Assembly: GCA_947629165.1 (NCBI GenBank)
Contig: CANRCR010000001.1
Coordinates: 86,246-150,245 of the forward strand
From: an uncultured Bacilli bacterium
GTDB taxonomy: Bacteria; Bacillota_I; Bacilli_A; RF39; UBA660
Reading direction: 5' to 3'
DNA: 64,000 bases
Positions 1-64,000 of this stretch are shown here, piece after piece. The notes below the pieces were generated by a model. It was given only the letters and a program-made list of their open reading frames with translations. It was not told the origin of the DNA and searched no databases. The position numbers and the translations under genes were made by a program. Numbering within the stretch: the first letter of the stretch is position 1; every line of letters begins with the position of its first letter.

Positions 1-704
1 GCATCGATGAAAAAGGAATTTTTTATAATCCCGCTTCGCAAGAAGTGCGGGATTTGGTAGTGGCAGGGGTGGAAGAAATTTTAAAAAATTATGATGTCGA
101 TGGTATTCTTTTCGATGATTATTTTTATCCGGATGCTTCGATTGATTTAGATAATTATCAAGATTATGTAGCTTCGGGAGGTAATCTTTCTTTGACAGAT
201 TATCGCCTCGATCAAGTTAATCAGTTAGTTCGGGCAGTTTATGAAATGGTTCATTCTTATCATAAGGTTTTTAGTATCAGTCCCGAAGGAAACATAGATA
301 ACAATTATGAAATAAACTATGCAGATACTAAACGATGGATGCAAGAAGATGGGTATATTGATTACATTATTCCACAAATATATTTTGGGTTTGATAACGA
401 ACGAAAACCTTTTTATGAAACGGTACGAGAATGGAATAATATGATTACAAATGATTCCGTTCAATTGCTTCCGGCCTTGGCTTTTTATAAAGCGGGAACG
501 GAAGATTATTATGCTTTACAAGGTTCTAAAGAGTGGCAATTACATCAAGATATTATTCGAAGACAGATTATTACTTCCCGTGCTGTTAGCCATTATAAAG
601 GCTTTGCTTTGTTTCGATACGAGTATGTTTTTGGAACTCGTTATGAAAATGATTCGGTTTTAAAAGAACGTGAAGCACTTGTCTCTTTATTACAACTCCC
701 ATAA
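1..704 (+). CDS. Glycosyl-hydrolase-like 10 (GHL10/YngK-type) family protein, C-terminal part; 5' end lies outside the window
   Basis: The reading frame is open from the window edge. The motif DGILFDDYFYP and the overall composition match the GHL10 family (B. subtilis YngK-like lipoproteins). Confidence 0.55.
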   Translation, partial: IDEKGIFYNPASQEVRDLVVAGVEEILKNYDVDGILFDDYFYPDASIDLDNYQDYVASGGNLSLTDYRLDQVNQLVRAVYEMVHSYHKVFSISPEGNIDNNYEINYADTKRWMQEDGYIDYIIPQIYFGFDNERKPFYETVREWNNMITNDSVQLLPALAFYKAGTEDYYALQGSKEWQLHQDIIRRQIITSRAVSHYKGFALFRYEYVFGTRYENDSVLKEREALVSLLQLP

Positions 705-762
705 TTCTTGACATTTTTAACTTTTTATGTTATAATGTTGACAATTTAAAGGGGGTGGCATC

Positions 763-1623
763 ATGAATTTACCAGAATATTATAATAGTGAAAAAATGAG
801 TCAAGAAGAAGCGTTTGAATGTATTGAATTCCTTTTTGATGGATATAAGACGCGCCGTCGTAAAAAAGATCTTTATCACCCGAACGATCCTGTTCCTCGG
901 ATGATTATTGGAACGTATTATCGTTTTATTGAAAATCCGGATTTTGATGAAATTTTCGATTCATTTAAGAAAAATTATATTACCAATGAAAGTAGACTTG
1001 AAGAAGTGACTACGATTAAGGAAAGACAAGGATTAGGAGTTGTTTACGATTATATTCGGTCGTTTGATGTAAATTCATCGATGAATGTTTACACTTTATT
1101 AAAATTACATCAATTACTTTTTTCGAAAGCGCCTCATCCTGAATGTGCGGGATCTTTACGTACTTACGATGTTTATTTACCGAATACGGGTATTACTGTT
1201 CCGACGTGGACAGATGTTCCGAAAATGATGCAACAATTATATTTCGATTCGCTTCCACTTTTCCAAGAAGGAAAATACATTCGTGAAAGTAAAGATATGA
1301 GTCATTTGATTCCTTATATTGATCATTGTATCGAATTAAACTGTAAACTAATCCAAATACAACCTTTTATAGATGGAAATAAACGAACTAGTCGTGCATT
1401 AATGAATTTGATGTTTAAAACAGTTAATATTCCACCGGTTTATGTAAAGATTAGTGAAGCGGAAGAGTATGGACGAGCAATGAATAAGGCCATCAATGAA
1501 CAAGATTATACGGATATTAAAACCTTTTATTACTATAAAATATGCGATTCTATTTATGAACTTGGTGTTAAACCTAAAAAGAATATGGCGTCTACCGATC
1601 CTGCTAAAGTGATAAAAAAGTAA
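763..1623 (+). CDS. Fic/Doc family protein (putative AMPylase/toxin-type)
   Basis: Fic core motif HPFIDGNKRTSRAL, a variant of HxFx(D/E)GNGRxxR. It has its own promoter-like sequence and an RBS (aagggggtg) upstream. Confidence 0.75.
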   Translation: MNLPEYYNSEKMSQEEAFECIEFLFDGYKTRRRKKDLYHPNDPVPRMIIGTYYRFIENPDFDEIFDSFKKNYITNESRLEEVTTIKERQGLGVVYDYIRSFDVNSSMNVYTLLKLHQLLFSKAPHPECAGSLRTYDVYLPNTGITVPTWTDVPKMMQQLYFDSLPLFQEGKYIRESKDMSHLIPYIDHCIELNCKLIQIQPFIDGNKRTSRALMNLMFKTVNIPPVYVKISEAEEYGRAMNKAINEQDYTDIKTFYYYKICDSIYELGVKPKKNMASTDPAKVIKK

Positions 1624-1701
1624 ATTAAAAAAAGAAATTCTATCTTAGGACTTCCTTTTTTTTTGGTTTTCAGTTATAATTGTTAATAGTAGGAGGTCAA
1701 T

Positions 1702-2235
1702 ATGAAAGATAAGAGAGGATTTACATTAGTTGAACTTTTGGCAGTACTCGTTGTTTTGGGAATCATTATGTTAATTGCTGTTCCTAATGTATTATCGACG
1801 ATGGATAATAATAAGAAAGAAATTTATATTACGGATGCAGGTAAGATGGTTACAATGGCGGAATACGCTATTCGATCGAATACGGATATTGCTTTACCAA
1901 CGGCCACTGAAATATTAATTCTTCCTTTATCAACCATTAACAATGGGGACTTGGAAGAAGATCCTGAAGGACGTACTTATTCACCTACCGACTCTTATGT
2001 TGCTATTATGAAGAATAATGGATTTGATGAGTATTGGGTGAATTTGGTTGGCGAAGAAGGAACGAGAAATCGTGGTATTCGTCTTACCAAATACGATGAT
2101 TTAAAAAAATCAGATCGTTTGAATCGCGTAGTTCTTGACATGAATGTTATAAAGACGACAAATACGGGTGGTATTGCACAAACCATGTGTGGTACTACTA
2201 GTTGTAAAACAGTTCGTGTTTATGCTTCAAAATAG
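1702..2235 (+). CDS. Prepilin-type N-terminal cleavage/methylation domain protein (type IV pilin / ComG-like pseudopilin) 1
   Basis: N-terminus MKDKRGFTLVELLAVLVVLGIIMLIAVP is a class III signal (G|FTLxE plus a hydrophobic helix). RBS taggaggt upstream. Confidence 0.8.
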   Translation: MKDKRGFTLVELLAVLVVLGIIMLIAVPNVLSTMDNNKKEIYITDAGKMVTMAEYAIRSNTDIALPTATEILILPLSTINNGDLEEDPEGRTYSPTDSYVAIMKNNGFDEYWVNLVGEEGTRNRGIRLTKYDDLKKSDRLNRVVLDMNVIKTTNTGGIAQTMCGTTSCKTVRVYASK

Positions 2236-2248
2236 GGGGGTATCTGTT

Positions 2249-2800
2249 ATGAAAAAGAAGAATGGTTTTACCTTAATTGAACTTTTGATTGTTGTAGTTA
2301 TTTTAGGTATTATGATTTTACTATCTACTTATATTCTTACGAATACCATCAATAATTCTCGAAAGGATTCTTTTATTCGAACCGTCGATAGTTATATAGC
2401 GCATGCGCGGACACAAATGTATTCGACAACTTATCCGATGCCTTTTAACCCGGATACGGCTGTTATTGTAAGTTTGCGTAGTCTCGATTTGGATGGACAA
2501 GATTCTGCTACTGCCAAATCGCCTTATGATGAACTTTGGGATATGGACGAAACATATACGGCAGCATATGTCGTTATTCACAACTACAATACGGCGGCTA
2601 ATCCACAGTGGACTTACTACTTTATTGCAAGAGATAAAGGCGGAAATTGTATTGAAATGACCGAAGAGGGACAAGCTACTAGAGAGAAGATTACGGTTGG
2701 TTGTGATATTCCTATTATTACTGCTGATTCTAAGACGTTATATATCCCTAATGAAGATAAAGAAGTACAGTTGACACCTAATTACATATTTTTGCGATAA
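2249..2800 (+). CDS. Prepilin-type N-terminal cleavage/methylation domain protein 2 (paralog of pilin 3)
   Basis: MKKKNGFTLIELLIVVVILGIMILL. I re-assigned the start to the ATG at 2249 behind RBS gggggg; the ORF-track start at 2168 overlaps the upstream gene. The C-terminal domain is paralogous to the 2867 protein (VVSLRSLDLDG...YVVI.N..TAA.P...YYF.A.D..GNCI). Confidence 0.8.
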   Translation: MKKKNGFTLIELLIVVVILGIMILLSTYILTNTINNSRKDSFIRTVDSYIAHARTQMYSTTYPMPFNPDTAVIVSLRSLDLDGQDSATAKSPYDELWDMDETYTAAYVVIHNYNTAANPQWTYYFIARDKGGNCIEMTEEGQATREKITVGCDIPIITADSKTLYIPNEDKEVQLTPNYIFLR

Positions 2801-2866
2801 GTTGTGTAAAATTGGTTGACCTTAAAAAGAATATATGATAATTTTAAATTAGAAGGAGAATGAAAT

Positions 2867-3457
2867 ATGAAAAAGAATTTAAACAAAAAAGGTTTTACTT
2901 TAGTTGAATTACTTGCTGTTATCGTTATTTTAGGTATTATTATGTTAATTGCTATTCCAAGTATTGCAGGAATTATTACCAATGCTCGGAAAGACTCATT
3001 TGTACAATCAATGGGACAATACATCAAAGCTGTTCACACAATGGATATTTCTCAAACTGTAGAAAGACAATACGATCCTACAAAGGCTACGGTTGTTAGT
3101 TTGAGAGCGGTTGACTTGGATAACAAAGAAGGAGATAAAGCTACATCGACATTTGGTGCTGCTTGGGATGCTTCCGATACTGAAACAAGAGCTTATGTAG
3201 TTATTTGGAACCGTCGTACTGCTGCTGACCCGGATTTCAAATATTACTTTGCTGCAGCCGATATGGCTGGTAACTGCATCGCTTTAACACTTGAAGGTGA
3301 TGCTGAACGTACAGATATTCAAACTGGTTGTACGATTACTCCAATTAATGAAAATACTTCGACATTAACAATTAATGTAGATGGCTCGGAATCAAAAACG
3401 GTAAACCTTGACAAAGATCATATCTATTTAACAAGAGCTTCTTATGGAAATGAATAA
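2867..3457 (+). CDS. Prepilin-type N-terminal cleavage/methylation domain protein 3
   Basis: MKKNLNKKGFTLVELLAVIVILGIIMLIAIP. Own promoter (ttgacc..17..tatgataat) and RBS aggagaa. A terminator hairpin follows. Confidence 0.8.
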   Translation: MKKNLNKKGFTLVELLAVIVILGIIMLIAIPSIAGIITNARKDSFVQSMGQYIKAVHTMDISQTVERQYDPTKATVVSLRAVDLDNKEGDKATSTFGAAWDASDTETRAYVVIWNRRTAADPDFKYYFAAADMAGNCIALTLEGDAERTDIQTGCTITPINENTSTLTINVDGSESKTVNLDKDHIYLTRASYGNE

Positions 3458-3484
3458 TTTTTAGAGAAGATAATTAAGTAATCT

Positions 3485-3518
3485 AAAGATTAAAACAAAA
3501 AGTTTTGATCTTTTTTTG
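3485..3518 (+). terminator. Rho-independent terminator after the pilin trio
   Basis: Imperfect hairpin agattaaaac/gttttgatct followed by a T-run. Confidence 0.5.
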
Positions 3519-3576
3519 TAAATGTGCTTCAACAGTCTCTTTCTTTTTAGTATAATTAATTTGAAGGAGTGATATT

Positions 3577-4470
3577 ATGTTAATCATTGGTTCACACGTT
3601 TCCTTTGGGAAAGATAAGCAATTGTTAGGAAGTGTTGAAGAGGCCCTTTCTTACGGAAGTAACACTTTTATGTTTTATACGGGTGCTCCTCAAAATACAG
3701 TTCGTTATCCACTTTCGGATACATTAAAAAAGGAAGCTCTAGAAAAAATGACTGAAGCAGGAATTGATTTTCATAATGTCGTTGTTCATGCTCCTTATAT
3801 TATCAATTTAGCTAATCCAGATCCTTCGAAATACGATTTTTCAGTTCGTTTTTTAGAAGAAGAGATAAAACGTTGTGATTTTTTAGGCATTTCGCGTATG
3901 GTTCTTCATTCGGGAAGTCATGTGGGAGTTTCGTTAGATATTGGGATTAAATCCATTATTCAAGGTTTAAATCAGTTATTATCGACTGATTCAAAAGTGA
4001 TGATTCTTCTAGAGACCATGGCTGGAAAAGGGAATGAAGTTGGTCGTACACTCGAAGAAGTAAAACAAATAATTGATGGCGTTCAAAATAAAGAACGTAT
4101 CGGTGTTTGTATCGACACTTGTCATTTGAATGATGCAGGATACGATTTGTCCGATTTTGATGCTTTTTTAAATTTATTCGATCAAATAATTGGTCTTTCT
4201 TACATTCAATGTGTTCATGTAAACGATAGTAAGAACGAACGAGGAAGTCATAAGGATCGTCATGAAAATATTGGCTTTGGAACGATTGGTTTTGATACCT
4301 TACAATCAATTATTTATCATCCGGCTTTAGAAAAGGTTCCTAAAATTTTAGAAACGCCGTATGTAGATCGTCTTTTTCCTCCTTACAAAGAAGAAATTCA
4401 GATGATTCGAAATCGAAATTTTGATCCGGATTTAATTGAAAAAATACGAATTACAAAAACCGACGAATAA
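3577..4470 (+). CDS. nfo: Endonuclease IV (deoxyribonuclease IV, AP endonuclease family 2)
   Basis: 297 aa, MLIIGSHVSF..., HAPYIINLANPD, metal-binding His/Asp/Glu pattern typical of Nfo. RBS gaaggagtg. Confidence 0.85.
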   Translation: MLIIGSHVSFGKDKQLLGSVEEALSYGSNTFMFYTGAPQNTVRYPLSDTLKKEALEKMTEAGIDFHNVVVHAPYIINLANPDPSKYDFSVRFLEEEIKRCDFLGISRMVLHSGSHVGVSLDIGIKSIIQGLNQLLSTDSKVMILLETMAGKGNEVGRTLEEVKQIIDGVQNKERIGVCIDTCHLNDAGYDLSDFDAFLNLFDQIIGLSYIQCVHVNDSKNERGSHKDRHENIGFGTIGFDTLQSIIYHPALEKVPKILETPYVDRLFPPYKEEIQMIRNRNFDPDLIEKIRITKTDE

Positions 4471-4516
4471 TTATTTTCATTCTATTTTGAATGTGTTACA
4501 ATGAATATAGGAGGTT

Positions 4517-5149
4517 TTGTGTATGTTATGGTTAATGAAAGATAATCAAAATGTTTTACAAGGGAATCGTATTACGGTTACGAATTTAACAGGAGCTAAA
4601 AAATTAAATGAAATATTGAATGAGAACTACCATTTGGTTCGTTCTAGTTATTATAAAACAATTGCTACAGCTAATCCTGGGAAGGATTATTTAGTTATTG
4701 ATACCGAAGTGGGAACGCATCGCTTTTATTTGATGAATACAACAGCTGTTTCGAATCGAATTCTTCGCTCGGCGCTCGGTTTAAGAGAGAAGGGCGATAG
4801 TGCACTTATCTCTTTTATGGATTTATTCCCTCGAAGAGAGGAACATTTTAAATTAGCACAGTCTTTATTCGAGCAATTACCCTTTGCTGATTACGAAGCA
4901 ACGATTTCATCGATGATGCCTGATTTTGATTGCTTTTATCGTCAAGTTTTACCAGTTGTTTCATTTGAGGAAAAAAGTTCTTACGATCTCGATTATTTAA
5001 AACAATTGGAATTACAAGCAAAAGCGGATGAAATTCCCCTTAAATTTGATCATCTTTTTGAAAAAGAAGCCGTGGCTCGGTCGAATCAGGCGGTTTATGA
5101 TTTTACCCAAAAGGTACTTACCAAGAAAAAGGAAACTACGGAAGCGTAG
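4517..5149 (+). CDS. Hypothetical protein (tandem paralog A)
   Basis: 210 aa ORF with RBS taggaggtt. It shares a motif (FPDF.CFYRQV.P) with the next gene. Confidence 0.5.
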   Translation: MCMLWLMKDNQNVLQGNRITVTNLTGAKKLNEILNENYHLVRSSYYKTIATANPGKDYLVIDTEVGTHRFYLMNTTAVSNRILRSALGLREKGDSALISFMDLFPRREEHFKLAQSLFEQLPFADYEATISSMMPDFDCFYRQVLPVVSFEEKSSYDLDYLKQLELQAKADEIPLKFDHLFEKEAVARSNQAVYDFTQKVLTKKKETTEA

Positions 5150-5209
5150 TTTTTTCTTGTGCTTTTGGTCAAATTATGGTATAATTAGAACGTTTTAGGG
5201 GGTTATACC

Positions 5210-5668
5210 ATGATATTATTAGTGAATGATCAAGCTTTAACACACAACTATGTGTTAAGTAAGGATTTAGGAAAATTGAAATCTTGTCAAATTTTATGTG
5301 ATGACTATTCTTTTAGACTAAAACATAATGCTTCGATGGCGGTCGTCGAGGAAGCATTAAGTGTATCTTCTGGACTTTTTCGTAGAAAAATTAATTTTGA
5401 AGATATGATTCATCATAATATTTCGAATTTGTCTTTAATCGAAGATATGATTGAACATTTATCGACGGAACATTGTACTATTGCACTTTCTCGATTATTC
5501 CCTGACTTTAGTTATTTTTATCGAGAAGTGTATCCTTTTATTGAAATTCGTACCAACGATGTTTGTTCGTTCGATATTGCTCGACGAACTCATTCAAAAG
5601 ATCTTTCCATTGCCGAAACGAATTCCAAAGTATTGTCTTTAGTGGACCGTGCTTTTCAATTAAAATAA
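5210..5668 (+). CDS. Hypothetical protein (tandem paralog B)
   Basis: 152 aa, RBS tagggggtt. Motif FPDFSYFYREVYP parallels MPDFDCFYRQVLP of the upstream protein. Confidence 0.5.
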   Translation: MILLVNDQALTHNYVLSKDLGKLKSCQILCDDYSFRLKHNASMAVVEEALSVSSGLFRRKINFEDMIHHNISNLSLIEDMIEHLSTEHCTIALSRLFPDFSYFYREVYPFIEIRTNDVCSFDIARRTHSKDLSIAETNSKVLSLVDRAFQLK

Positions 5669-5700
5669 AAATTACGGATGATTATCCGTAATTTTATTTT
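5667..5700. terminator. Bidirectional rho-independent terminator between convergent genes
   Basis: Perfect hairpin aaaattacggatgattatccgtaatttt flanked by an A-run and a T-run. Confidence 0.7.
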
Positions 5701-5938
5701 GATATTCTTTCCATAAATCAATTCCTAATTGATAGGTGGCAGGCTCTAATTTTCCTTTTAACGCTGCAATAATGGACTCTGGATTTCCTTTATAAAAAAC
5801 TTTCCACTTTTTTTGCGCAGTGTCGAGTAGTAATTGTGCATCTTGCATACTTATTTGAACCCCTTTTTCTTTCGCATACTGGATAATGTCTTTTGTCGTT
5901 AAATTTTTTATATATTGACTGATTAGGTATTCGTACAT
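5672..5938 (-). CDS. Small hypothetical protein (88 aa)
   Basis: Intact ORF on the minus strand, convergent with paralog B. RBS aggagga (rev-comp tcctcct) immediately upstream of the ATG. Confidence 0.5.
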   Translation of the reverse strand: MYEYLISQYIKNLTTKDIIQYAKEKGVQISMQDAQLLLDTAQKKWKVFYKGNPESIIAALKGKLEPATYQLGIDLWKEYQNKITDNHP

Positions 5939-6008
5939 GATTTCCTCCTATCTTAAAATATGAGGATAATTTAAAGAAAATAACCGAAACTATAGATGAG
6001 GGATATAC

Positions 6009-9030: not shown

Positions 9031-9540
9031 GTGATTAACAAGCAAAATTTGTGGTTCTTAACATTATTTAGTTTGATTTTAGTATTAAGTGTTTATTACA
9101 TTACGATGCCGAGTGAATTGCTTCTTACCAATAACAGTAATTACGATACGAATGTTTCTAGTGATTCGGATACCGATGTTGTTCAGATCGAAGAAAGCGA
9201 TTTACTAACGGCCATGCGTGTCAGTTTAGATGAAGAACGACTTGAGTTACAAAATACACTTCAGGAAACTTTAACATCTACTTCTTCTTCGACCGAGGAT
9301 AAGAATGAAGCTTATGAAAAATTAAGACATCTCGACGAAGTAAAAGGAAAAGAAGAGACACTCGAAAATAAAATAAAAACAAATTTTAAACTGGATAACT
9401 TTATTAAAATTGATGGTAGTGAAATTCAAGTAGTTGTTGTTGCACAAGAACATAGTAGTGAACTTGCGAATAACATTATGCGTAGCATACAAGAAGAGTT
9501 TCCAGAAAAAGTATATGTGACTGTAAAATTTGAAAAGTAA
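9031..9540 (+). CDS. spoIIIAH: Stage III sporulation protein AH-like (SpoIIIAH family)
   Basis: GTG start. The N-terminus MINKQNLWFLTLFSLILVLSVYYI closely parallels B. subtilis SpoIIIAH (…WLLTMLSLVVVLSVYYI…). Single TM segment followed by a YscJ/FliF-like domain. It sits directly downstream of efp, as the spoIIIA operon does in Bacillus. Confidence 0.65.
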   Translation: MINKQNLWFLTLFSLILVLSVYYITMPSELLLTNNSNYDTNVSSDSDTDVVQIEESDLLTAMRVSLDEERLELQNTLQETLTSTSSSTEDKNEAYEKLRHLDEVKGKEETLENKIKTNFKLDNFIKIDGSEIQVVVVAQEHSSELANNIMRSIQEEFPEKVYVTVKFEK

Positions 9541-9633
9541 AATAATTTAGGCAAAATTACTATGCTTTTACCCTTCGAACTCATAAAATAATATGAGTCT
9601 ATATCAAAATGTTTTAGGAGAAGGAGTGAAAGT

Positions 9634-9843
9634 GTGCGCAAAGGTATTTTAACGAAAAGAGAAAAAGAAGTATTTAATCTCTTGGTTTTAAATAAAACGA
9701 CAAAAGAAATTGCTTTTGATTTAGGTATCAGTGAGAAAACCGTTCGTAATCATATTTCGAATGCTATGCAAAAATTGGGCGTTAAAGGTAGGGCAGGAGC
9801 GGTTGTCGAATTGTTAAAACTAAATGAAATCAGTCTCTCGTAA
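9634..9843 (+). CDS. gerE: Sporulation transcription regulator GerE (LuxR/FixJ-type HTH)
   Basis: 69 aa. ...LLTKREKEVFNLLVLNKTTKEIAFDLGISEKTVRNHISNAMQKLGVKGRAGAVVELL is nearly identical across its length to B. subtilis GerE. GTG start behind RBS aggagaaggag. Confidence 0.85.
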   Translation: MRKGILTKREKEVFNLLVLNKTTKEIAFDLGISEKTVRNHISNAMQKLGVKGRAGAVVELLKLNEISLS

Positions 9844-9870
9844 GAAAGATATAAAAATCTTTCTTTTTTG
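9843..9870 (+). terminator. Rho-independent terminator after gerE
   Basis: Hairpin agaaagatataaaaatctttct followed by a T-run. Confidence 0.65.
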
Positions 9871-9914
9871 TTATTTTAAAAACTTTCATTTCATACAATT
9901 GATTAGGTGATAAC

Positions 9915-10859
9915 ATGTTAAAACAAAAGGCCTTACGTAAAATTTTAGTAACTACTTTTGCCGTTTTTATTTTGTTTGTACTTTATTTAATTCCGGATAT
10001 TCAACCTACGAATCGGTTAAATCCTGTCACGGAAGTAGAATATGTCGACGAATTAAATACCAATGTTGTCTATCTCTTAAGTAATGATCGTTATTTAGTA
10101 AAAGCGCATCTTTTGCTAGAGGGAAATGATACTTTAAGTAAAGCGAAAAGCATTGTAAAAACTTTAACGATTAATCAAAATAAAAATTTACCAAGTGGTT
10201 TTACAGGAATTATTCCTGAAAAAACAATTTTAGAGGAAGTTACATTTGATAAAGGAATTTTAACACTTAATTTTAATAAAGAACTTTTATCGATCGATGC
10301 TGATTTAGAAGAACGAATGGTGGAGGCACTCGTTTATAGTCTTACTTCTTTGGATGGCGTAGAAGGAATTACGATCCGTGTAGAAAACGAAGTTTTAGAA
10401 GCTTTGCCACATCGTAAAAAGCCCCTTTCTTCTATTCTTACTACTGATTTTGGAATTAATAAAGTGTACGAATTTTCTCAAAAAGACGATATTCATAAAG
10501 TTGTTGTTTACTATCTTTTAGAAAATGATGATACGTATTATGTTCCCGTAACGAAATATGTAAATGATAGTCGTGATAAGATTGAAATTATTATTGATAA
10601 CTTATCGAGTAGTTATATTTATCAACCTAATTTGACTTCTTTTTTGGATCGAGAAGCAAGTTTGTTAAATTATGAAATTTCGGATGGATTAATGATTTTG
10701 GAGTTTAATGATCATCTTTTTGATGGCAATCAAAAAGTGTTAGAAGAGGTACTTTATACCATTTCGTATTCTGTTTTTGATAACTATGATGTCAATGAAG
10801 TACTATTTCAAGTAGGAGAGGAATCGGTCTTTAAACAGTTACGCACGGAACTACCATAA
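9915..10859 (+). CDS. gerM: GerM-like sporulation/germination protein (two GerMN domains, N-terminal membrane anchor)
   Basis: N-terminal TM helix. There are two repeats with the GerMN pattern (VVYLL...; IPEKT.LEEVTFDKGILTLNF...VYSLTSLDGVEGITIRVENE; and a second copy VVVYYLLENDD...GLMILEFNDHLF...LYTISYSVFDNYDVNEVLFQV). Confidence 0.55.
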   Translation: MLKQKALRKILVTTFAVFILFVLYLIPDIQPTNRLNPVTEVEYVDELNTNVVYLLSNDRYLVKAHLLLEGNDTLSKAKSIVKTLTINQNKNLPSGFTGIIPEKTILEEVTFDKGILTLNFNKELLSIDADLEERMVEALVYSLTSLDGVEGITIRVENEVLEALPHRKKPLSSILTTDFGINKVYEFSQKDDIHKVVVYYLLENDDTYYVPVTKYVNDSRDKIEIIIDNLSSSYIYQPNLTSFLDREASLLNYEISDGLMILEFNDHLFDGNQKVLEEVLYTISYSVFDNYDVNEVLFQVGEESVFKQLRTELP

Positions 10860-10901
10860 AAATTAATCCCTAAATTAAGCATAAAATGGAGCTATCTTCG
10901 A

Positions 10902-10929
10902 GGGAAGTTTAAAATACTTCCCTTTTTGT
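10902..10929 (+). terminator. Rho-independent terminator after the gerM-like gene
   Basis: Hairpin gggaagtttaaaatacttccc followed by ttttg. Confidence 0.65.
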
Positions 10930-11012
10930 CGTATCTTTTTCGAAAAAAAGATTGAATTATATCCTTTAGTTGTTGTATAATGAGAGTGCAAAATGAATTT
11001 ATTTTGTTTTAT

Positions 11013-11089
<77 letters not shown>

Positions 11090-11126
11090 TTTCGTTTTTT
11101 ACTCGATTGTTCGAGTTTGATTAAAT

Positions 11127-11152
11127 ACGACTTTTTTAAGTCGTTTTTTTCT
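11127..11152 (+). terminator. Rho-independent terminator after tRNA-Arg
   Basis: Hairpin acgacttttttaagtcgt followed by a T-run. Confidence 0.6.
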
Positions 11153-11244
11153 TTTCTTGACGATTATTTGTCAATTCATTTTTACTTTTTTTATTATTTC
11201 GAATATAATAAAATTAAAGTTATAAAAATAGAAAGGAGTATTTA

Positions 11245-11385
11245 TAACTAGCGCTAGGACCAGGATGGTTGACGAGGTTAACAGTGGTCGAAAGATTCAG
11301 CGGATGCTGTTACGGATACTACGTTCGTTAGACTATTCAAAAAAGACAAAATTAAAATTGTAACAAAGGAATAGTTTAGTAGTAG
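11245..11385 (+). ncRNA. glmS ribozyme (GlcN6P-responsive self-cleaving riboswitch) in the glmS leader
   Basis: Leader contains AGCGCUAGGACCAGG...GACGAGG...CGGAUGC, which matches the conserved glmS ribozyme core blocks (AGCGCC.G..., GACGAGG, GGAUGCC). It is positioned directly 5' of glmS, as in Gram-positives. Confidence 0.65.
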
Positions 11386-11396
11386 GAGGTTATAAT

Positions 11397-13163
11397 ATGT
11401 GTGGTATTGTAGGATACCTAGGAAATAGAAAAGCAATTCCTGTAATTATGCAGGGGTTAAAGAGTTTGGAATATCGTGGTTACGATTCTTCTGGAATTGC
11501 GTACGTTCAAGATCAGATGATTCACGTACTAAAAAAAGAAGGAAAAATAGAAAATTTAGATACCCTGTTGGATTATGATACGGATACCTATTTAGGAATC
11601 GCCCATACAAGGTGGGCTACGCATGGGAAGGCAAACGATATTAATGCTCATCCTCATACTTCAGGAAAAATCACTTTAGTTCATAATGGAATTATTGAAA
11701 ATTATGCCCAATTAAAGAAAAAACTCATTGAAAAAGGAAAAACTTTTGTCAGTGAAACCGATACGGAAGTCGTTGCTTGTTTACTCGATACTCTTTATGA
11801 AGAAACCAAAGATTTACTTAAAGCAATTGCACTTTTATCTGAAAAGGTAATCGGTTCTTATGCGTTAAATATTCTTTGTGAAGATGAACTCGATACTTTG
11901 TATGCCGTTCGAAAAGATAGTCCTTTGATTGTTGGAAGGGGGAATCAGGAATTTATTTTAGCGAGTGATATTCCAGCTTTACTTCCTGTTACGAATCATT
12001 ATTATCTTTTAGATAATTATGAAATTGTTAAAATAACCAAAGAAGGGATTTCTTTCTATGATCAAAAGTTAAATAAAATTACGAAAGTAGAACAGGAATA
12101 TACGGGTGACTTGGAAGTTTCTTCTAAAAAAGGATACGACCACTTTATGTTAAAGGAAATCAATGAACAACCGGAAGTAATTAAAAACTTACTTGCAAAA
12201 TATGTTGTAGAAGATCATCTTCAAAATGTTTTCGATATCAAAAAATATCAAACCATTGAAATTGTTGCCTGTGGAAGTGCCTATCATGCAGGTTTAATTG
12301 GCAAGTATTATTTGGAAAATTTAGCATCGATTCCAACGCGTGTCACTTATTCTTCCGAATATCGTTATCAGAAGAATTTCTTTGATAAGAATAATTTAGT
12401 TATTGTAATTTCACAATCTGGAGAAACGGCGGACACGTTAGCTGCTTTGAAATTAGCCAAAGAGCATGGAATCGACACGTTAGCGATTGTCAATGTGGTT
12501 TCTTCTTCGATTGCCCGTGAAGCAGATCATGTATTTTATACGGATGCCGGTATTGAAGTTGCGGTAGCGACTACCAAAGCTTATTTTGCTCAAGTAGTAT
12601 CGTTATTACTTCTTGCCGTGGCAACCTTAAAAGAACAAGCATCGATTCTTGCTTCATTGAAACAACTACCTTCGCTTATTTCGAAATATATTCATCATTT
12701 TGATTATGAAACACTTGCGAAACGTTTTATAGGTCGGGAACATATTTTCTATTTAGGAAGAGGCGTTGACTTTTCACTCGCAATGGAAGGAAGTTTAAAA
12801 TTAAAAGAAATTTCTTATATCCATAGTGAAGCTTATCCTGCTGGAGAATTAAAACATGGAACGATTTCACTAGTGGACGAAGAAACTGGAATTATTGCGG
12901 TTGTACTCGATCATACCATTAAAGAAAAGACGATTAGTAACTTGAAAGAAGTTGCTTCAAGGGGTGCTCAAGTGGTTGCTATTACGAACGATGCTACCGA
13001 TGAATTTTGTGATGAAAAAATACTTCTCGAAGATTATGATGCAGTGATTAATCCGTTAGTTGCGATTATTCCTATGCAATTATTAGCTTATCATGTTGCC
13101 AAGTTAAAAAAATGTGATATTGATAAACCACGCAATCTTGCGAAATCGGTTACCGTGGAATAA
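11397..13163 (+). CDS. glmS: Glutamine--fructose-6-phosphate aminotransferase
   Basis: N-terminal MCGIVGY (Ntn Cys). Two SIS domains. 588 aa. RBS taggaggtt. Confidence 0.9.
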   Translation: MCGIVGYLGNRKAIPVIMQGLKSLEYRGYDSSGIAYVQDQMIHVLKKEGKIENLDTLLDYDTDTYLGIAHTRWATHGKANDINAHPHTSGKITLVHNGIIENYAQLKKKLIEKGKTFVSETDTEVVACLLDTLYEETKDLLKAIALLSEKVIGSYALNILCEDELDTLYAVRKDSPLIVGRGNQEFILASDIPALLPVTNHYYLLDNYEIVKITKEGISFYDQKLNKITKVEQEYTGDLEVSSKKGYDHFMLKEINEQPEVIKNLLAKYVVEDHLQNVFDIKKYQTIEIVACGSAYHAGLIGKYYLENLASIPTRVTYSSEYRYQKNFFDKNNLVIVISQSGETADTLAALKLAKEHGIDTLAIVNVVSSSIAREADHVFYTDAGIEVAVATTKAYFAQVVSLLLLAVATLKEQASILASLKQLPSLISKYIHHFDYETLAKRFIGREHIFYLGRGVDFSLAMEGSLKLKEISYIHSEAYPAGELKHGTISLVDEETGIIAVVLDHTIKEKTISNLKEVASRGAQVVAITNDATDEFCDEKILLEDYDAVINPLVAIIPMQLLAYHVAKLKKCDIDKPRNLAKSVTVE

Positions 13164-13256
13164 GAGATAAAAGTACTTGTTAAAACAAGTGCTTTTTGTT
13201 TACTTTTGAATATTGCTATGTTATGATAATAATTATCATTATTAGGAGGTTTTGGA

Positions 13257-13733
13257 ATGAAAAAGATAATGTCTGTAGCAGGAGCAGCTGCTTTAGGAGT
13301 TACTTCTTTGGCAGGAACTGCGGCTATTGTTGCAAAAGGATGTATTGATGTTACCGCACATATGGTAGATAAAGGATATAAATTAAATAAGGATGCTTAT
13401 TTAGCTTATTCAAAAGAGCATAATGCATCGAAAGAAAAAGAAAAGACTTTTAAAGACACCTTATGTACTTTTCTTACTTACGTGCCGGTAGTTAATGTCG
13501 GAATATCACTTTACGTAATGCACGAAGTTACTAAAATGTTTGATGATGTAGAGGAGATATCTCCTTATCTTGAACCTTTAACAGAAAATGAAAAAATCGA
13601 ACGTGCTGGACTTCATAATAATTTTGAAAAAGCAATGTATTTTATAGAAGCTTCCGGATTAACCAAGGACGAAATCGAGTCATGTCTCGCAGAAGAAAAA
13701 GGTCCTACGTATATTAAACTTCCAACTGAATAG
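13257..13733 (+). CDS. Hypothetical protein with N-terminal hydrophobic/signal-like segment
   Basis: 158 aa, RBS taggaggtt, N-terminus MKKIMSVAGAAALGVTSLAGTAAIVA. A terminator follows. Confidence 0.5.
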   Translation: MKKIMSVAGAAALGVTSLAGTAAIVAKGCIDVTAHMVDKGYKLNKDAYLAYSKEHNASKEKEKTFKDTLCTFLTYVPVVNVGISLYVMHEVTKMFDDVEEISPYLEPLTENEKIERAGLHNNFEKAMYFIEASGLTKDEIESCLAEEKGPTYIKLPTE

Positions 13734-13824: not shown

Positions 13825-15912
13825 ATGAAACATTACGAATGTGTTCGACAAGATGGAACGAAAGATTGTGGAATTGCTTCTTTACTTACTATTGTAAAAA
13901 CGTATGGTGGCTCCGTTTCGAAAGAGTATTTACGCACACTTACTAGGACAGGGAAGAATGGAGTGAATGCCTATTACTTACTCGAAGCAGGAAAAACATT
14001 AGGTTTTATGGCACAAGGAGTAGAAGCAGATTTTCGTACTTTTTCGAATCAAAATTTACCTTGTATTGCGCATATTACCGTTAATGAAAGTTATCAACAT
14101 TTTGTCGTCATTCATGCTATTCAAAAGGAAAAAGAATATCTTGTGGTAGCAGATCCAGCCGTTGGTATTCGAACGATTTCTTTTGCTGAATTCGACCGAT
14201 TATCTACTGGAAAATATTTGCTTTTTACTTTAACGAAACCCTTATTACAACAACAAAAGAGTCCATCTACTAAAAAGATTATTAACCTCACTTTAAAAAA
14301 CCATTATAAACTCTTGATTTTGATTTTCATATTTTCCTTTATTTATCTTTTTTTAGAGTTATTGACTTCTTTTGCATTTCAACTATTTCTTGAAGAAGGA
14401 ATGATTGGTTCCATCAAGCAAAATTTATTACTCGCTTTTGTTACTTTTTTAGGATTTACTTTTTTTCTTGAAGTGTTTCAATATCTTCGAAGAGTTTTTG
14501 TTTTTTACCTTTCTAATCATATCGATTTCGTACTTTTTAAACAACTCATCGAACATCTTTTTTCACTTCCGTATCTTTATTTTAAAAATCGCCCAACAGG
14601 AGAAGTTTTAGCGCGTCTTTCCGATCGACAGCAATTACAAGAAGGAATCACCCAATTCTTTTTATCTTTTTGTTTTGACGCCTTGGCCTTTTTATTTTTG
14701 TTTTTCTTTTTAAGTTGGTTTTTAAATTCGTTTTTTTGGGTACTTATCATCGGTTTTGTATTATTCGCTTTTGTATCCTATTATTTATTTCGACCAATCA
14801 AAGAAAAAATAGCTATTTGGACTAAAGAACGTGGAATGCATTTTTCTATGTTAACCGAGTCTCTTCGAGGAATTAGTTCCTTACAACATCTTGATCTTAC
14901 TACTTCTCATAGTCACTCTTTAATCTATGCGTATCGAAAGATACTAGGAGAACAAAATATTTTACAGAAGGATTTATCTCGTTTATTCGTATTTCGTGAA
15001 TTCGTTCAAAAAATATTATTACTCATCTATCTCTATTGGGGTGGTTTACAAGTCGTTCAAGGAACTTTATCTTTTGGTCGTTTTTTTGTTTGTTATACGT
15101 TTATTCATTATTTTATTGATCATTTTTCAAATTTACTTTTCTTTTTTGAAAATTATCAATCGATGGGGATTGTTATCGATCGACTCGATGAATTATTGCA
15201 GTGTCCTTCTCAAGAATTCCTATTTGAAGTAGGTGCCTCCCTAAAGAAATGGGAGCAAGGTATATCGATTCGAAACTTATCGTATTCCTATATTCCTCAT
15301 GACTTTGTTATTCGAAATTTTTCACTCGAAATAAAACCAGGTATGCGCCTTTTAATCTATGGAGAAAGTGGTAGTGGCAAAAGTACGTTGGCTAAACTGC
15401 TATTACGTTATTTTGAAGTTGCTCCTCATACCATTTATATCGACAATACGGATCTATCTGATTTTAATCTCTTACAATTACGGCAACAAATTTCTTATCT
15501 TTCTCAAGAAGAATTTCTTTTTACAGATAGTGTTTATCAAAATGTAGTACTGTATCGGGATGTTTCGTACGATGCTTTTTTAAAAGTGGCTAGGCTCGTC
15601 CGACTTGATTTTATTAAAGATAAAAGTAGTCTAGGATATCATTACTTACTGGAAGAAGATGGATTTAATTTAAGTGGTGGAGAAAGGCAACGTATTTTAT
15701 TAGCTCGAGCTTTATTAAAAGAGGCACAATTATATATTTTTGATGAAAGTTTTAGTGAAATTGATGTTCCTACTGAAAGAAAAATTTTAAAAGATCTTTT
15801 TCATACTTATCCGAATAAGACTTTTCTTATTATTTCTCATCGGCTATCCAATCAAGATTTATATGACCGAAAAATTTGTTTCCAAAAGGAGGGGATTCGT
15901 CGTGCAGTATGA
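13825..15912 (+). CDS. Bacteriocin-processing ABC transporter with N-terminal C39 peptidase domain (ComA/LagD/SunT type; ATP-binding plus permease)
   Basis: N-terminal C39 domain (QDGTKDCGIASL... catalytic Cys; H in HFVVIHA; D in ADPAVG). Six-helix TM region. ABC ATPase with Walker A GESGSGKST, signature LSGGERQRILLARAL, Walker B LYIFDES and H-loop ISHRLS. Confidence 0.85.
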   Translation: MKHYECVRQDGTKDCGIASLLTIVKTYGGSVSKEYLRTLTRTGKNGVNAYYLLEAGKTLGFMAQGVEADFRTFSNQNLPCIAHITVNESYQHFVVIHAIQKEKEYLVVADPAVGIRTISFAEFDRLSTGKYLLFTLTKPLLQQQKSPSTKKIINLTLKNHYKLLILIFIFSFIYLFLELLTSFAFQLFLEEGMIGSIKQNLLLAFVTFLGFTFFLEVFQYLRRVFVFYLSNHIDFVLFKQLIEHLFSLPYLYFKNRPTGEVLARLSDRQQLQEGITQFFLSFCFDALAFLFLFFFLSWFLNSFFWVLIIGFVLFAFVSYYLFRPIKEKIAIWTKERGMHFSMLTESLRGISSLQHLDLTTSHSHSLIYAYRKILGEQNILQKDLSRLFVFREFVQKILLLIYLYWGGLQVVQGTLSFGRFFVCYTFIHYFIDHFSNLLFFFENYQSMGIVIDRLDELLQCPSQEFLFEVGASLKKWEQGISIRNLSYSYIPHDFVIRNFSLEIKPGMRLLIYGESGSGKSTLAKLLLRYFEVAPHTIYIDNTDLSDFNLLQLRQQISYLSQEEFLFTDSVYQNVVLYRDVSYDAFLKVARLVRLDFIKDKSSLGYHYLLEEDGFNLSGGERQRILLARALLKEAQLYIFDESFSEIDVPTERKILKDLFHTYPNKTFLIISHRLSNQDLYDRKICFQKEGIRRAV

Positions 15913-25948: not shown

Positions 25949-26070
25949 TTTGAAAAGGAATAAAGTAATTGACTTTGTTCTTTTTTTTAATTAGAATAAT
26001 TGACTACAATTAGTTTCATATAAACATGGATTAATTATTTGGTAAATCCATTTTGAAGAGAGTGATTCTT

Positions 26071-26904
26071 ATGGAAAAATTTACTTTAACTCTTTTAACG
26101 GCGCAAGAAATTGGACGGGTAGGAGCAACTGATTCCGTTGAACCAATTTATTATTTGGAATGTAGGCCAACTTCCTTTGCACTTGCGACGGGTGCTTATA
26201 ATGAGGGCTTTTATTGGACTCGTTCTTGGCGTGACTCAGGAGGCCTTTTCTGTTCTCGTAATGGCGATCCTGCCACTTGCCGTTACGAGGGGATTCGTCC
26301 GGTTTTATGTCCGAAAGATGAAAGTTTCTATCAACAACTTTTAGATGAAAGTACGATTTTTCAAAGTTCGCTTTACCATGATCATGCACCGCTTGTATTT
26401 TATGGCGAATATCCGTGTGAAAAGGTTTCGGATGAGGAACAACTTAATTTAGAAACGGATTATAAAAATGAACGTTTGAGCACTACTTCAAAAATATATA
26501 CGTTTGATTCCAATGTCCCACATGCGTCGGGATTTGCTTTTGCTCCTGAAACTTATCTGGAATTTGAATGTTTAGGAGAAAAATATATTCGTTATAAGAG
26601 TTATTACTCAAAATATGAAGGAAATTGGTTTCGAGTACAACCCATTCCGTGGTATATCGATTTAAAAAATCATCGTTTAATTTCGCAAAATATTCTTGTT
26701 GCCGGTATTCAGTTTAACGATCTTTTACAACCGGATGGTATCGATTTTGAAAAGACCCGTATGAAATGGTATCTCGATACTCATTTAGCTCCTAATATTT
26801 TGCCTTCGCACGAAAGCATCTTACAGCAAAATGAACCTTTACGACAATTTGTTTATCGTAAATCTTATTCTAATCGACAAAAAAAGGAAAACGAAGATAG
26901 GTGA
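26071..26904 (+). CDS. DUF6273-like family paralog 1 (function unknown)
   Basis: Start taken at the ATG at 26071 (MEKFTLTLLT...). Shares WT/WYW and RYEGIRPV N-terminal signatures, and C-terminal FYGEYP...WFRVQPIPWYIDL...LISQNILVAGIQF, with four other proteins in this window. Confidence 0.6.
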   Translation: MEKFTLTLLTAQEIGRVGATDSVEPIYYLECRPTSFALATGAYNEGFYWTRSWRDSGGLFCSRNGDPATCRYEGIRPVLCPKDESFYQQLLDESTIFQSSLYHDHAPLVFYGEYPCEKVSDEEQLNLETDYKNERLSTTSKIYTFDSNVPHASGFAFAPETYLEFECLGEKYIRYKSYYSKYEGNWFRVQPIPWYIDLKNHRLISQNILVAGIQFNDLLQPDGIDFEKTRMKWYLDTHLAPNILPSHESILQQNEPLRQFVYRKSYSNRQKKENEDR

Positions 26905-26908
26905 TTTT

Positions 26909-27775
26909 ATGGATTTTAAGATATCAATTCCTAGTGCTTACGATATTGGAAGAGCATCCTCTATTTCGAAAGCAGATAATAATCCGCCTTCCTATTTAAG
27001 TGCTTATGCCATGTTTAAAATACATCCTAAGTTAGCTATTCCACTTACTGATTTTGCAATGGTGGTTACACCGAGTCGCTATTCGACTCCGTTTTGGACT
27101 AAAACACCTTTTGATGATCAAATGTATAATTCTTCGTATTTTTCTTATCCGTATGCTACTAATATTTCCGTTTTACCAACATTAAAACCTTCGGAGTCGC
27201 TCTATAAAGATTTGTTTTTAGAGGGAAATTTTTCAGAATCGATTCCAACGGTTCAATTTGGTACCTATCCACAAAATTATGTAACAGATGTAGCTCTTTG
27301 GACAGAATTGAACGAAGCATATCAAGCTAGGACATTACCCAAGACAGGAAACCAATATACTTTTTATCGGAACGAAGCACTCGGAAATTATAAGACGGGA
27401 AGGCTTTGCACTTATGAATCTTTTACTTGGGAAGATCGACAATTTCTTTTTCTTCCAAGTCTTAGAGAAACATTTGCTATTACCTATGATATTTTAGTTC
27501 TTCCCAATCAGCCTATTTGGATTGAAATTCTTCCGGTCGAGTGGAAGATCGATACAAAGCATCAGGTGCTTGTTGCTAGTAAAGTTTTACTTTCAGGTAT
27601 ACCACTTCACAATGACGACTGGTATTCGGGCGATTTTGAAGATAGTTTTTTATATGGCTATCTCAATCATCATTTTAAAAAGCAATTACTTTTTTCTTCA
27701 ACTCCCGTTTCATCCTTGGTCGATACGCATGAAGATTTAAATAAGTTGATGTATAAAAAATTTGGAAAAAGATAA
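26909..27775 (+). CDS. DUF6273-like family paralog 2 (divergent)
   Basis: Start at the ATG at 26909. C-terminal block FGTYPQ...PIWIEILPVEWKIDTKHQVLVASKVLLSGIPL parallels the other paralogs. The N-terminal part is more divergent. Confidence 0.55.
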   Translation: MDFKISIPSAYDIGRASSISKADNNPPSYLSAYAMFKIHPKLAIPLTDFAMVVTPSRYSTPFWTKTPFDDQMYNSSYFSYPYATNISVLPTLKPSESLYKDLFLEGNFSESIPTVQFGTYPQNYVTDVALWTELNEAYQARTLPKTGNQYTFYRNEALGNYKTGRLCTYESFTWEDRQFLFLPSLRETFAITYDILVLPNQPIWIEILPVEWKIDTKHQVLVASKVLLSGIPLHNDDWYSGDFEDSFLYGYLNHHFKKQLLFSSTPVSSLVDTHEDLNKLMYKKFGKR

Positions 27776-53652: not shown

Positions 53653-53662
53653 AGGGGATTTT

Positions 53663-54265
53663 ATGGAAATTAAATTTAATATGCAGACTGAGTATCAACG
53701 TGCTATGAAACTACGGCGAAAGGAATTTCCGTACGAGGCATTTGTTCAAGAACGAAAAGAACAAGCGAAAGTTTTTTTTGATACGTATTTCGATTTTTAT
53801 GGACCCGTGCTCGATACGGATTTGGTCGAATTTACGATGGATACCAATACGGGAGTGAGTGATTATTTTATTAATCCCGAAAAGAAATACAAAATGCGGT
53901 ATATCAGTCAAATTTCGATTGAGAACCGGCTTTCGAATAAAGTACCATACTTTTTGTTACCGGAATATTCTACGATTGTGGCCGCAGGGAGTTATCCTTT
54001 GTTAAATCGTTCAATTTTTGAAATGGCTACGCAAGAAGCAAGTTTCTTTTTCATGGGTGGTGTTTACGGTTCTATCCGAGATCCTTATTTTCTTCGTCAA
54101 GTTCAAAGTTACGAAAAATTAGCCGATCAATTAATGACTTATTATCGATTACCAGAATCGATTTTGGACCGGGTTCATTATGGTCCCGACAAACAATTTG
54201 TCTATGTCAATTATATGCAAGATATCGTCATTCCGTCTCCCAAATATTTTCGCTATTTGAGTTAG
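53663..54265 (+). CDS. Hypothetical protein (200 aa)
   Basis: ATG at 53663 behind gagggga; the ORF-track start overlaps mutL. Confidence 0.45.
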   Translation: MEIKFNMQTEYQRAMKLRRKEFPYEAFVQERKEQAKVFFDTYFDFYGPVLDTDLVEFTMDTNTGVSDYFINPEKKYKMRYISQISIENRLSNKVPYFLLPEYSTIVAAGSYPLLNRSIFEMATQEASFFFMGGVYGSIRDPYFLRQVQSYEKLADQLMTYYRLPESILDRVHYGPDKQFVYVNYMQDIVIPSPKYFRYLS

Positions 54266-54273
54266 GAGGTTCT

Positions 54274-55635: not shown

Positions 55636-55655
55636 AGGAATTCCTCGTTTTATAT

Positions 55656-56582: not shown

Positions 56583-56635
56583 ATTTTCACCCTAATAATA
56601 TTATAGCAAAGAAGCCACAAAAAAAGAAGTAAAAA

Positions 56636-56899: not shown

Positions 56900-57000
56900 T
56901 TTTTCACCTCACTTTTTGTAACATCTTAATTCTAGCAAAAAATAAGGAAAAAAGCAAATAGAAAATGTTTCTTTTGCCATAATAATAAAGGTGATAGTAA

Positions 57001-58041: not shown

Positions 58042-58068
58042 GCCTTTTAAATAAGGTTTTTTTCTTTT

Positions 58069-59450: not shown

Positions 59451-59494
59451 CACTTGTTTTTTTTAATTTTCCGTTATACTATAATAATTGTAGG

Positions 59495-63340: not shown

Positions 63341-63417
63341 AAAAAAAGGGAAGGAAACTTTACCTTTTCTTTTGGTTTAATTTTTAGTATAATAAGTTTA
63401 GTTTAGAGGTGGATTCC

Positions 63418-64000
63418 ATGCGACAAGATTTTATTCGAAATTTTTCTATTATTGCCCATATCGACCATGGGAAAAGTACCTTGGCAGATCGTATTTTAGA
63501 AGTGACCGGAGCAGTTTCTAAAAGAGAAGCGAAGAATCAACTTTTAGACAACATGGATATCGAACGGGAACGGGGTATCACGATTAAGTTAAATGCCGTT
63601 CAACTAACGTACACCTACCAAAATCAAACGTATTATTTACATCTTATTGATACGCCGGGACACGTCGATTTTAGTTATGAAGTGAGTCGTAGTTTAGCTG
63701 CCTGTGAAGGAGCTCTTCTCGTTGTCGATGCCGCGCAAGGGGTGGAAGCCCAAACATTGGCAAATCTATATCTTGCGATGGAACATGACCTTACGATTAT
63801 TCCCGTGATTAATAAAATTGATTTACCGAATGCCGATGTTGAAAAGGTCAAAAGAGAACTTGTCGAAGAACTTGGCTTTCGGGAAGATGAAATTCTTTTG
63901 ACAAGTGCTAAAAATGGAACTGGAATCGTCGAACTAATCGAAGCCATTATTACACGCATTCCTGCGCCGAAAGGAAATCCTAAAGCACCGTTACAAGGAC
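63418..64000 (+). CDS. lepA: Elongation factor 4 (LepA), N-terminal part; 3' end outside the window
   Basis: [28 protein letters not shown]... (G1), ...DTPGHVDF (G3), NKIDL (G4). RBS agaggtgg. The minus-strand ORF 63675..63959 is an antisense artefact. Confidence 0.9.

Follow-up and report, generated by a model that had tools for sequence, protein, structure and literature searches.

The present analysis concerns three consecutive genes, here named Pil1, Pil2 and Pil3, on contig CANRCR010000001.1 of an uncultured Bacilli bacterium (lineage RF39; assembly GCA_947629165.1), within a stretch of 64,000 nucleotides that was analyzed in full and is referred to as the window; labels such as L005 and L178 denote related contigs or loci compared with it. 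All three proteins begin with a class III signal, i.e. a short basic leader with a final Gly, Phe at +1 and Glu at +5, and then a hydrophobic helix, and all three score above the gathering threshold of the N_methyl model PF07963 (E 5e-9 to 2e-8) and above the cut-off of TIGR02532. These matches bear out the preliminary description of the region, which had reported three adjacent genes with prepilin N-termini, and its coordinates were right. In a six-frame scan of the whole 64 kb, the G-F-T-L-x-E motif followed by a hydrophobic helix was confined to these three open reading frames (ORFs) and is therefore not a chance occurrence. The start of Pil2 was taken at the ATG at 2249, giving the N-terminus MKKKNGFTL; both the mechanically made ORF list and the precomputed calls (192 aa) place it further upstream. 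Pil2 is without the usual Pro at about +22.

Pil2 and Pil3 are paralogs over their full length (44% identity, E 2e-51), and Pil1 aligns with Pil3 over the first 48 residues only, i.e. the N-terminal helix, in agreement with the earlier view of a related pair beside a divergent first member. Once the helix is removed, the head of Pil1 and those of Pil2 and Pil3 form two separate families (Pil1-type and Pil3-type), with a faint kinship between the Pil1 and Pil3 heads visible by profile only. The C-terminus of Pil1 carries Cys-x5-Cys, and Pil2 and Pil3 each have a pair of Cys, spaced about 21 residues apart, toward the C-terminus, in a D-region-like arrangement. In confident structure predictions of Pil1 and Pil3, a long helix at the N-terminus packs against a beta-sheet, and the closest structural match of both models is the minor pilin PilA of Streptococcus sanguinis (7o5y); the head domains resemble solved pilins weakly, and when solved structures were searched by profile, matches were limited to the N-terminal helix. 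Both testable defining features of the type IV pilin superfamily, the signal and the helix-on-sheet head, are thus found in the trio, the one read from sequence and the other from the predicted structures of Pil1 and Pil3. No ComG, Gsp or PilA equivalog model reaches its cut-off on any of the three proteins, and the matches are restricted to the N-terminal helix. The comparison with ComGC and ComGD proposed in the preliminary description accordingly gave no ComG membership (best scores 34 bits for ComGC against a cut-off of 75, and 30 bits for ComGD against 70). Membership among GspG–K fails likewise, with GspG at 23–32 bits against 88.85 and GspH, GspI and GspJ far under their cut-offs. By sequence, the two head-domain families have no match among characterized pilins and appear to be new. 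A Tad/Flp identity was rejected, the trio having a GFTLxE signal and a large beta-sheet head, whereas Flp pilins are short, have no globular head and are encoded beside tadZ/tadA/tadBC. The gut pilus locus of TANB77 is a Tad cluster with adjacent machinery (PMC11680825), and its "conserved pilin" was set aside as unrelated to the trio, being that of a Tad pilus with machinery alongside.

The features of the locus are collected in Table 1. A Fic-domain gene lies upstream of the trio and nfo downstream, as had been stated, and both adjacencies are real. A consensus scan of 600–4600 reported no promoter before Pil1 or before Pil3. The strong promoter of its own that had been ascribed to Pil3 is not confirmed by this comparison: the scan is silent there, and in the candidate read by eye the second hexamer, TAATTT, fits the consensus at three of six positions. 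The A/U-rich hairpin after Pil3 was overlooked by the terminator scan, which demands at least three G-C pairs; between the promoter ahead of Fic and the end of Pil3, neither that scan nor RNA folding gave any terminator-like structure. Since a promoter precedes Fic, none was reported before Pil1 or Pil3, and the sole hairpin follows Pil3, the order of signals suggests that Fic, Pil1, Pil2 and Pil3 are probably carried on one four-gene transcript. The nfo gene has a promoter candidate of its own at 3529–3556. An Rfam scan of 1–6000 found no riboswitch and no family above threshold. In the same scan, a sub-threshold match at 5551–5698 to an Aggregatibacter small RNA family (24.5 bits, gathering score 97) is most likely due to chance.

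Table 1. Features of the pilin locus and the synteny anchor at the end of the window (aa, amino acids; nt, nucleotides).
Feature	Position	Strand	Details
Sigma-70-type promoter candidate	708..736	+	TTGACA-17 nt-TATAAT with upstream TG; sole 12/12 match in 600-4600
Fic-domain gene	763..1623	+	PF02661, E 3.5e-11
Pil1 prepilin, Pil1-type family	1702..2235	+	177 aa
Pil2 prepilin, Pil3-type family	2249..2800	+	183 aa; N_methyl E 5.2e-9
Weak internal promoter candidate before Pil3	2816..2844	+	Read by eye: TTGACC (2816-2821), 17 nt, TG-n-TAATTT
Pil3 prepilin, Pil3-type family	2867..3457	+	196 aa; candidate major subunit
Intrinsic-terminator-like hairpin	3485..3520	+	12-bp A/U-rich stem, 5-nt loop, U-run; fold -14 kcal/mol, z -2.0
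nfo, deoxyribonuclease IV	3577..4470	+	NF002196, 419 bits against cut-off 333
5' part of lepA, synteny anchor	63409..64000	+	Window ends inside lepA

Database searches returned 3415 matches for the Pil3 family and 309 for the Pil1 family, nearly all of them unnamed metagenome proteins, and the few named matches that reach past the N-terminal helix come from metagenome-assembled genomes (MAGs) labelled "Bacilli bacterium" or "Tenericutes bacterium". A scan of a genome collection with the Pil3 family was swamped by the generic N-terminal motif, and the window's own species was not among the matches listed. In both families Phe+1, Thr, Leu and Glu+5 of the signal are invariant and Gly-1 is at least 90% conserved, while identity in the head domains drops to 30–40%; intact full-length orthologs occur across dozens of lineages at 30–67% identity. 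The Pil1-type family is the more conserved of the two and its gene is always the first of the module. The order of a Pil1-type gene, one to three Pil3-type genes and then nfo recurs in L005/L006 (a 1.43-Mb contig), L091, L093, L095 and L181; in four further low-GC genomes (L012, L015, L023 and L029) one to three smaller pilins occupy the same site before nfo, as do the pilins of L026, there with a Fic gene between. Genes upstream of the module vary (GHL10 with Fic, a DAO/Rieske gene, ABC exporters, or GHL10 alone), and nfo is the most conserved neighbor, at times just 2–70 bp downstream, a lasting adjacency that is unusual for pilin genes. Because this gene order recurs before nfo across low-GC genomes, comparison of the contigs indicates that the module is old and has been maintained within a clade of low-GC (23–35%), small-genome Bacilli, and is not a remnant peculiar to this genome.

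Two of the related loci show arrangements of their own. In L005, three Pil3-type paralogs (9224–11743 and 13078–13542) share an identical sequence for roughly the first two thirds of their length and differ at their C-termini only, and fragments of IS110- and IS200-type transposases lie beside them; this may reflect recombination, or variation, of the exposed end of the protein. In L011 (9316–15511), a Pil1-type gene and a second pilin gene lie immediately upstream of a Gram-positive conjugation-like block with a TrbL-like protein (580 aa), a VirB4-like protein (597 aa) and duplicated cell-wall hydrolase genes.

Assembly machinery was sought with hidden Markov models (HMMs) of PilB, PilT, PilC, PilD and PilM, for which the pilus clusters of three Firmicutes, Sporosarcina, Paenibacillus and Thermoanaerobacterium, supplied the sequences. 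None had a match in the six-frame translation of the window (E ≤ 1e-3), in keeping with the earlier observation that the 64 kb hold no pilus machinery. Likewise, about 45 pilin-centered loci of low-GC Bacilli MAGs showed no ATPase, platform or peptidase gene within 10 kb, and in the same scan loci of Bacillales, Clostridia and double-membrane bacteria did hold machinery near their pilins. A lone PilB-type ATPase was present in L096, about 7 kb beyond comEA-comEC. It was found with HMMs, which replaced a regular expression for the Walker A motif, TGSGK; that pattern was dropped as too strict (the L096 ATPase has GATGTGKS), and it also flagged unrelated proteins in L011 and L052. As a query of metagenome contigs, the L096 ATPase returned 516 relatives, 80 of whose loci were fetched, and in many of these a lepA homolog lies about 4.7 kb from the ATPase. 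A look-up of the window protein encoded at 61693–62490 led to contig L178, which has 98.8% nucleotide identity with window positions 53565–64000 and belongs to the same species. Past lepA, L178 continues with a hemN-like gene, a gene for an HD protein, tmk, a GDPD gene, and then a T2SSE ATPase gene on the minus strand followed divergently by two pilin-like genes, here o184 and o188. The unit of ATPase and pilin-like genes spans 14822–17308 of L178, equivalent to about 68.4–70.9 kb in window coordinates and thus outside the window; the ATPase gene alone occupies about 68.4–69.7 kb and lies about 4.4 kb past the window's end.

The L178 ATPase has 422 aa, matches PF00437 with E 2e-124, scores 492 bits with the GspE model and 455 bits with the PilB model over the whole catalytic part, and is closer to the PilB than to the PilT HMM (1e-148 vs 3e-40). 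Its Walker A, His box and Cys4 motifs are intact, and the long N-terminal domain is absent. Of the two pilin-like proteins, o188 (188 aa) is a canonical prepilin (N_methyl E 2.7e-6) and o184 (184 aa) has a degenerate prepilin start, …NNRAFLLIEF…, with Ala at -1. The ATPase with divergent o184 has related units at 68 metagenome loci; in the same species and in relatives a PilB-type ATPase and two pilin-like genes lie about 3–5 kb beyond the end of lepA, and dozens of metagenome contigs from gut and rumen keep the unit beside tmk, the HD protein gene, hemN and lepA. The species, read from its own and its sister strain's sequence, thus appears to have no fewer than five pilin-like genes, together with an assembly ATPase, at two loci about 65 kb apart. 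The trio was first described as orphan, which is right for the window and wrong for the species, in which the ATPase and two pilin-like genes follow shortly past the 3' end. For machinery genes to be scattered as single genes is unusual in a Firmicute. Pil1-type genes also lie directly upstream of comEA-comEC, overlapping the end of rnc, in L094 (10001–13683) and L096 (7101–12031). ComEC is well conserved in the sub-lineage of these two loci (120 clusters at ≥50% identity); a ComEC search seeded from L094 gave 120 matches in the lineage, none of them on a contig that bears the trio.

We consider it likely that, in this low-GC, small-genome, spore-forming gut member of the Bacilli, the trio encodes structural subunits of a type IV filament with genes dispersed over the chromosome, and the patterns above are consistent with that reading. 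Among the readings first offered, a pilin set for machinery encoded elsewhere is the best supported, by the ATPase and the two pilin-like genes in L178; the platform and peptidase half of that machinery was not found in the DNA searched. In such a system, a prepilin peptidase (A24) would cleave after Gly-1 and methylate Phe+1, and the ATPase, via a platform protein encoded elsewhere, would extract the subunits from the membrane and polymerize them through the wall. Glu+5 is tied to subunit assembly rather than to cleavage, and its invariance therefore argues for real assembly rather than mere export. Pil3-type proteins may form the bulk of the fiber, because their copy number varies, their C-termini vary and the gene here is the last before the terminator; Pil1 and the pilin pair beside the ATPase may be priming or low-abundance subunits.

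The lineage also encodes many prepilin-type proteins, which suggests that a working peptidase and a filament are needed. Related low-GC loci contain 102 distinct prepilin-type ORFs, 31 of them of at least 300 aa; the ten largest were tested, and all have an N_methyl start, seven with surface-type modules as well (BspA-type leucine-rich repeats, Ig-like, DUF6273, ALK/LTK glycine-rich and Listeria-Bacteroides repeat). Modular pilins that carry adhesin modules on a fiber are a known concept (PMC8179133). We favor a multipurpose surface fiber, probably for attachment and, as part of that, for displaying the large modular pilins that related genomes encode. DNA uptake via ComEA/ComEC is plausible because a Pil1-type gene adjoins comEA-comEC, the ATPase resembles ComGA in length (with the usual length of ComGA as the yardstick) and the trio lies in the efp neighborhood. 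The gene order of the yqe-yqh region of Bacillus subtilis points the same way; overall we hold this role to be possible but somewhat doubtful. Large prepilin-type proteins, of 400–1240 aa, occur in L009, L010, L019, L020, L027, L035, L049, L076 and L086 (in all but L009 at about position 10000), including five tandem genes for proteins of about 685 aa at 1294–12055 of L009, and no pilus machinery was found within 10 kb of the genes in these nine loci.

Several observations weigh against the filament or against parts of this proposal. The ATPase is known from the sister-strain contig L178 and not from the window's own record. Neither a T2SSF platform nor an A24 prepilin peptidase turned up in iterated HMM searches (E ≤ 10) of the window, L178 and 2.4 Mb of DNA in total, of which 1.93 Mb is related low-GC DNA around pilins, ATPase and comEC, with about 72 kb from this species, and the missing platform and peptidase genes in the DNA searched are the main weakness of the case for a filament. 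In L094 a terminator-like element and about 400 bp lie between the pilin gene and comEA, and the link to competence is one of adjacency only. Codon usage, scored against EF-P and pyruvate kinase, bears hardly any mark of translational selection, and neither Pil3 nor any other pilin stands out by it. The assignment of Pil3-type proteins as major and of Pil1 and the ATPase-linked pilins as minor or priming subunits is one that we infer, and we regard it as close to an even call, leaning slightly to the doubtful side.

Comparison with known systems places the trio among the filaments of single-membrane bacteria. The type IV pili of S. sanguinis are alike in their single-membrane host, tandem paralogous pilin genes and canonical class III signals, with PilE1 and PilE2 as major and PilA, PilB and PilC as minor or modular pilins. 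However, all pil genes of S. sanguinis lie in one locus and its major pilins have about 140 aa, whereas the trio proteins have 177–196 aa, their heads are unmatched to solved pilins by sequence and the ATPase is about 65 kb away. The Com pilus of Bacilli (comGA–GG and comC) is, like the present system, restricted to Firmicutes and vertically inherited; ComGA is without the long N-terminal domain of PilB, as is the L178 ATPase, the five Com pilins equal in number the five pilin-like genes known in the species, and Pil1-type genes adjoin comEA-comEC in L094 and L096. ComGC has about 100 aa. Type IVa major pilins exceed it by about 40 residues (PMC7212644), and the comG operon of Erysipelotrichales lies directly upstream of efp (PMC12786226). 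The trio shares that efp neighborhood but differs from the Com pilus in the size of its proteins, in scores under the ComG cut-offs, in having no single operon and in that comGB and comC were not found in the DNA searched. In Clostridia, the main cluster holds pilB, pilC, pilD and pilMNO together (C. difficile with PilA1 and PilJ, C. perfringens with PilA1–3), and C. difficile pilA1 is under a cyclic di-GMP riboswitch, unlike the trio, with no riboswitch in 1–6000. The type IVa pili of Neisseria and Pseudomonas likewise have pilin, ATPase and accessory genes in separate loci, and their major pilins come in variable copies and carry a disulfide bond in the C-terminal region; an outer-membrane secretin and the retraction ATPase PilT are present there but neither was seen here, where the host is a single-membrane Firmicute. 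The system would work in the manner of the type IV or Com pili of single-membrane bacteria, with its unusual features staying within the known kind, and nothing in evidence requires the new use of the pilin fold that had been raised as a third reading of the genes.

The Fic-domain protein upstream departs from the canonical catalytic motif HxFx(D/E)GNGRxxR. Its motif is QPFIDGNKRTSR, in which Gln stands where the catalytic His is expected and Lys replaces the second Gly. An ortholog in L005, 34% identical and likewise upstream of the pilins, has the same Q..K motif. A motif was recognizable in 120 of the 150 best Fic representatives, as HPFxDGNGR in 90 and QPFxDGNKR in 29, i.e. the two substitutions co-vary almost perfectly. 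Because of this co-variation, the sequences indicate that the protein belongs to a conserved non-canonical subfamily and is not the product of a decayed gene. In L181, a closer relative in which Pil1 is 63% identical, the slot of the Fic gene holds an unrelated 240-aa gene; it is empty in L014 and L095, and L026, where a Fic gene separates the pilin from nfo, has a canonical one that is not orthologous to that of the window. An obligate partnership between Fic and the pilins was rejected on these grounds, and Fic is not counted as part of the pilin system because its linkage to the pilins is not conserved.

An alternative explanation could be that the class III signal is a mere cleavable membrane anchor or export tag, with the trio and the large prepilin-type proteins acting as individual surface proteins that form no filament, a use comparable to that in archaea, where class III signals occur on sugar-binding proteins. 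The failure to find platform and peptidase genes near any pilin, ATPase or comEC locus searched would fit such a use, as would the very many prepilin-type ORFs with adhesin-like modules in the lineage and the weak match of the heads to solved pilins. It would fit as well with the reported absence of sortases in RFN20 and ML615J-28, orders of comparable small-genome uncultured Bacilli (PMC10868615). But this would not account for the invariant Glu+5 in both families, for the retention in species and lineage of an intact assembly-type ATPase with pilin-like genes of its own, or for a predicted fold that is the standard helix-on-sheet assembly unit, and we think individual surface proteins improbable. 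Another possibility, raised in the preliminary description as a degenerate comG fragment, is that the trio is a decaying, non-functional remnant of a comG or type IV pilus operon left after loss of the ATPase and platform. The position of the trio in the neighborhood where Erysipelotrichales keep comG, the lack of an adjacent ATPase or platform gene and the low ComG equivalog scores are what decay would leave, but intact full-length orthologs with an invariant processing motif across dozens of lineages are not. Copy number rises in some genomes, fold predictions are confident, a promoter and a terminator frame the genes and the ATPase is retained in the same species; a remnant is therefore very unlikely.

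The conserved nfo neighbor could instead reflect a sporulation-linked role, at the forespore or the spore surface, in which the trio is co-expressed with nfo and the sporulation genes of the window. In B. subtilis nfo is a forespore-expressed repair gene. However, nfo here has its own promoter candidate and is parted from Pil3 by the terminator-like hairpin, the promoter before the operon is a perfect match to the housekeeping-type consensus, and general collinearity with the yqe-yqh region of B. subtilis presumably accounts for the sporulation genes of the window. We know of no spore structure with pilins bearing class III signals and consider such a role highly improbable. Finally, Fic and the trio could form an accessory or mobile island in which Fic is toxin-like or an effector, with no tie to a chromosomal pilus system. 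The slot between GHL10 and the pilins does vary (Fic-like, the unrelated 240-aa gene, or nothing), IS fragments flank the L005 paralogs and the Pil1-type pair of L011 adjoins the conjugation-like block, but the module holds the same site by nfo, PBP, L33 and efp across many lineages, the window ORF lists contain no integrase, repeats or tRNA boundary, and the pilins persist where Fic is absent, which together make an island extremely unlikely. We therefore retain the filament with scattered genes as the preferred explanation.

The remainder of the window consists of housekeeping and sporulation genes, with spoIIIAH, gerM, yqfD, spoIIGA, sigE, gpr and spoIIP all within it. The spoIIIAH homolog (9031–9540) follows efp directly, without adjoining spoIIIAA–AG, and does likewise in L005, L093 and L181. 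An ABC exporter of 695 aa (13825–15912) has an N-terminal region like a bacteriocin-processing peptidase domain and small ORFs after it, and this is possibly a bacteriocin export locus. Five paralogous ORFs of 265–314 aa, 25–40% identical, lie in two clusters (26053–26904 and 26831–27775; 60844–61692, 61693–62490 and 62537–63340) and share a GGIRP-like motif, with no Pfam match and no signal sequence; a kinship with the DUF6273 modules of the large pilins was rejected on comparison.

Papers on the genomics of RF39 and RFN20 make no mention of pili or competence. It is conceivable, although we think it rather unlikely, that the filament is the clade's general surface-display device, replacing wall-anchored proteins (sortases being reported missing from RFN20 and ML615J-28), with the nfo-linked Pil1/Pil3 module as the conserved core of the fiber and the variant Fic as a non-catalytic accessory. 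If so, dozens of scattered genes, from 140-aa pilins to modular proteins of 1,200 aa, would share one signal and one dispersed machine, and in some members the co-transcribed Gln/Lys-variant Fic would assist the pilins specifically, without catalysis. For general pilus biology the system would be a further example and not a new principle, and it illustrates that pilin genes that seem orphan in a limited window can have partners just beyond it. For this clade of uncultured Bacilli, abundant in gut and rumen and known from metagenomes alone, it would provide candidate surface antigens and adhesins and a possible route of DNA uptake.

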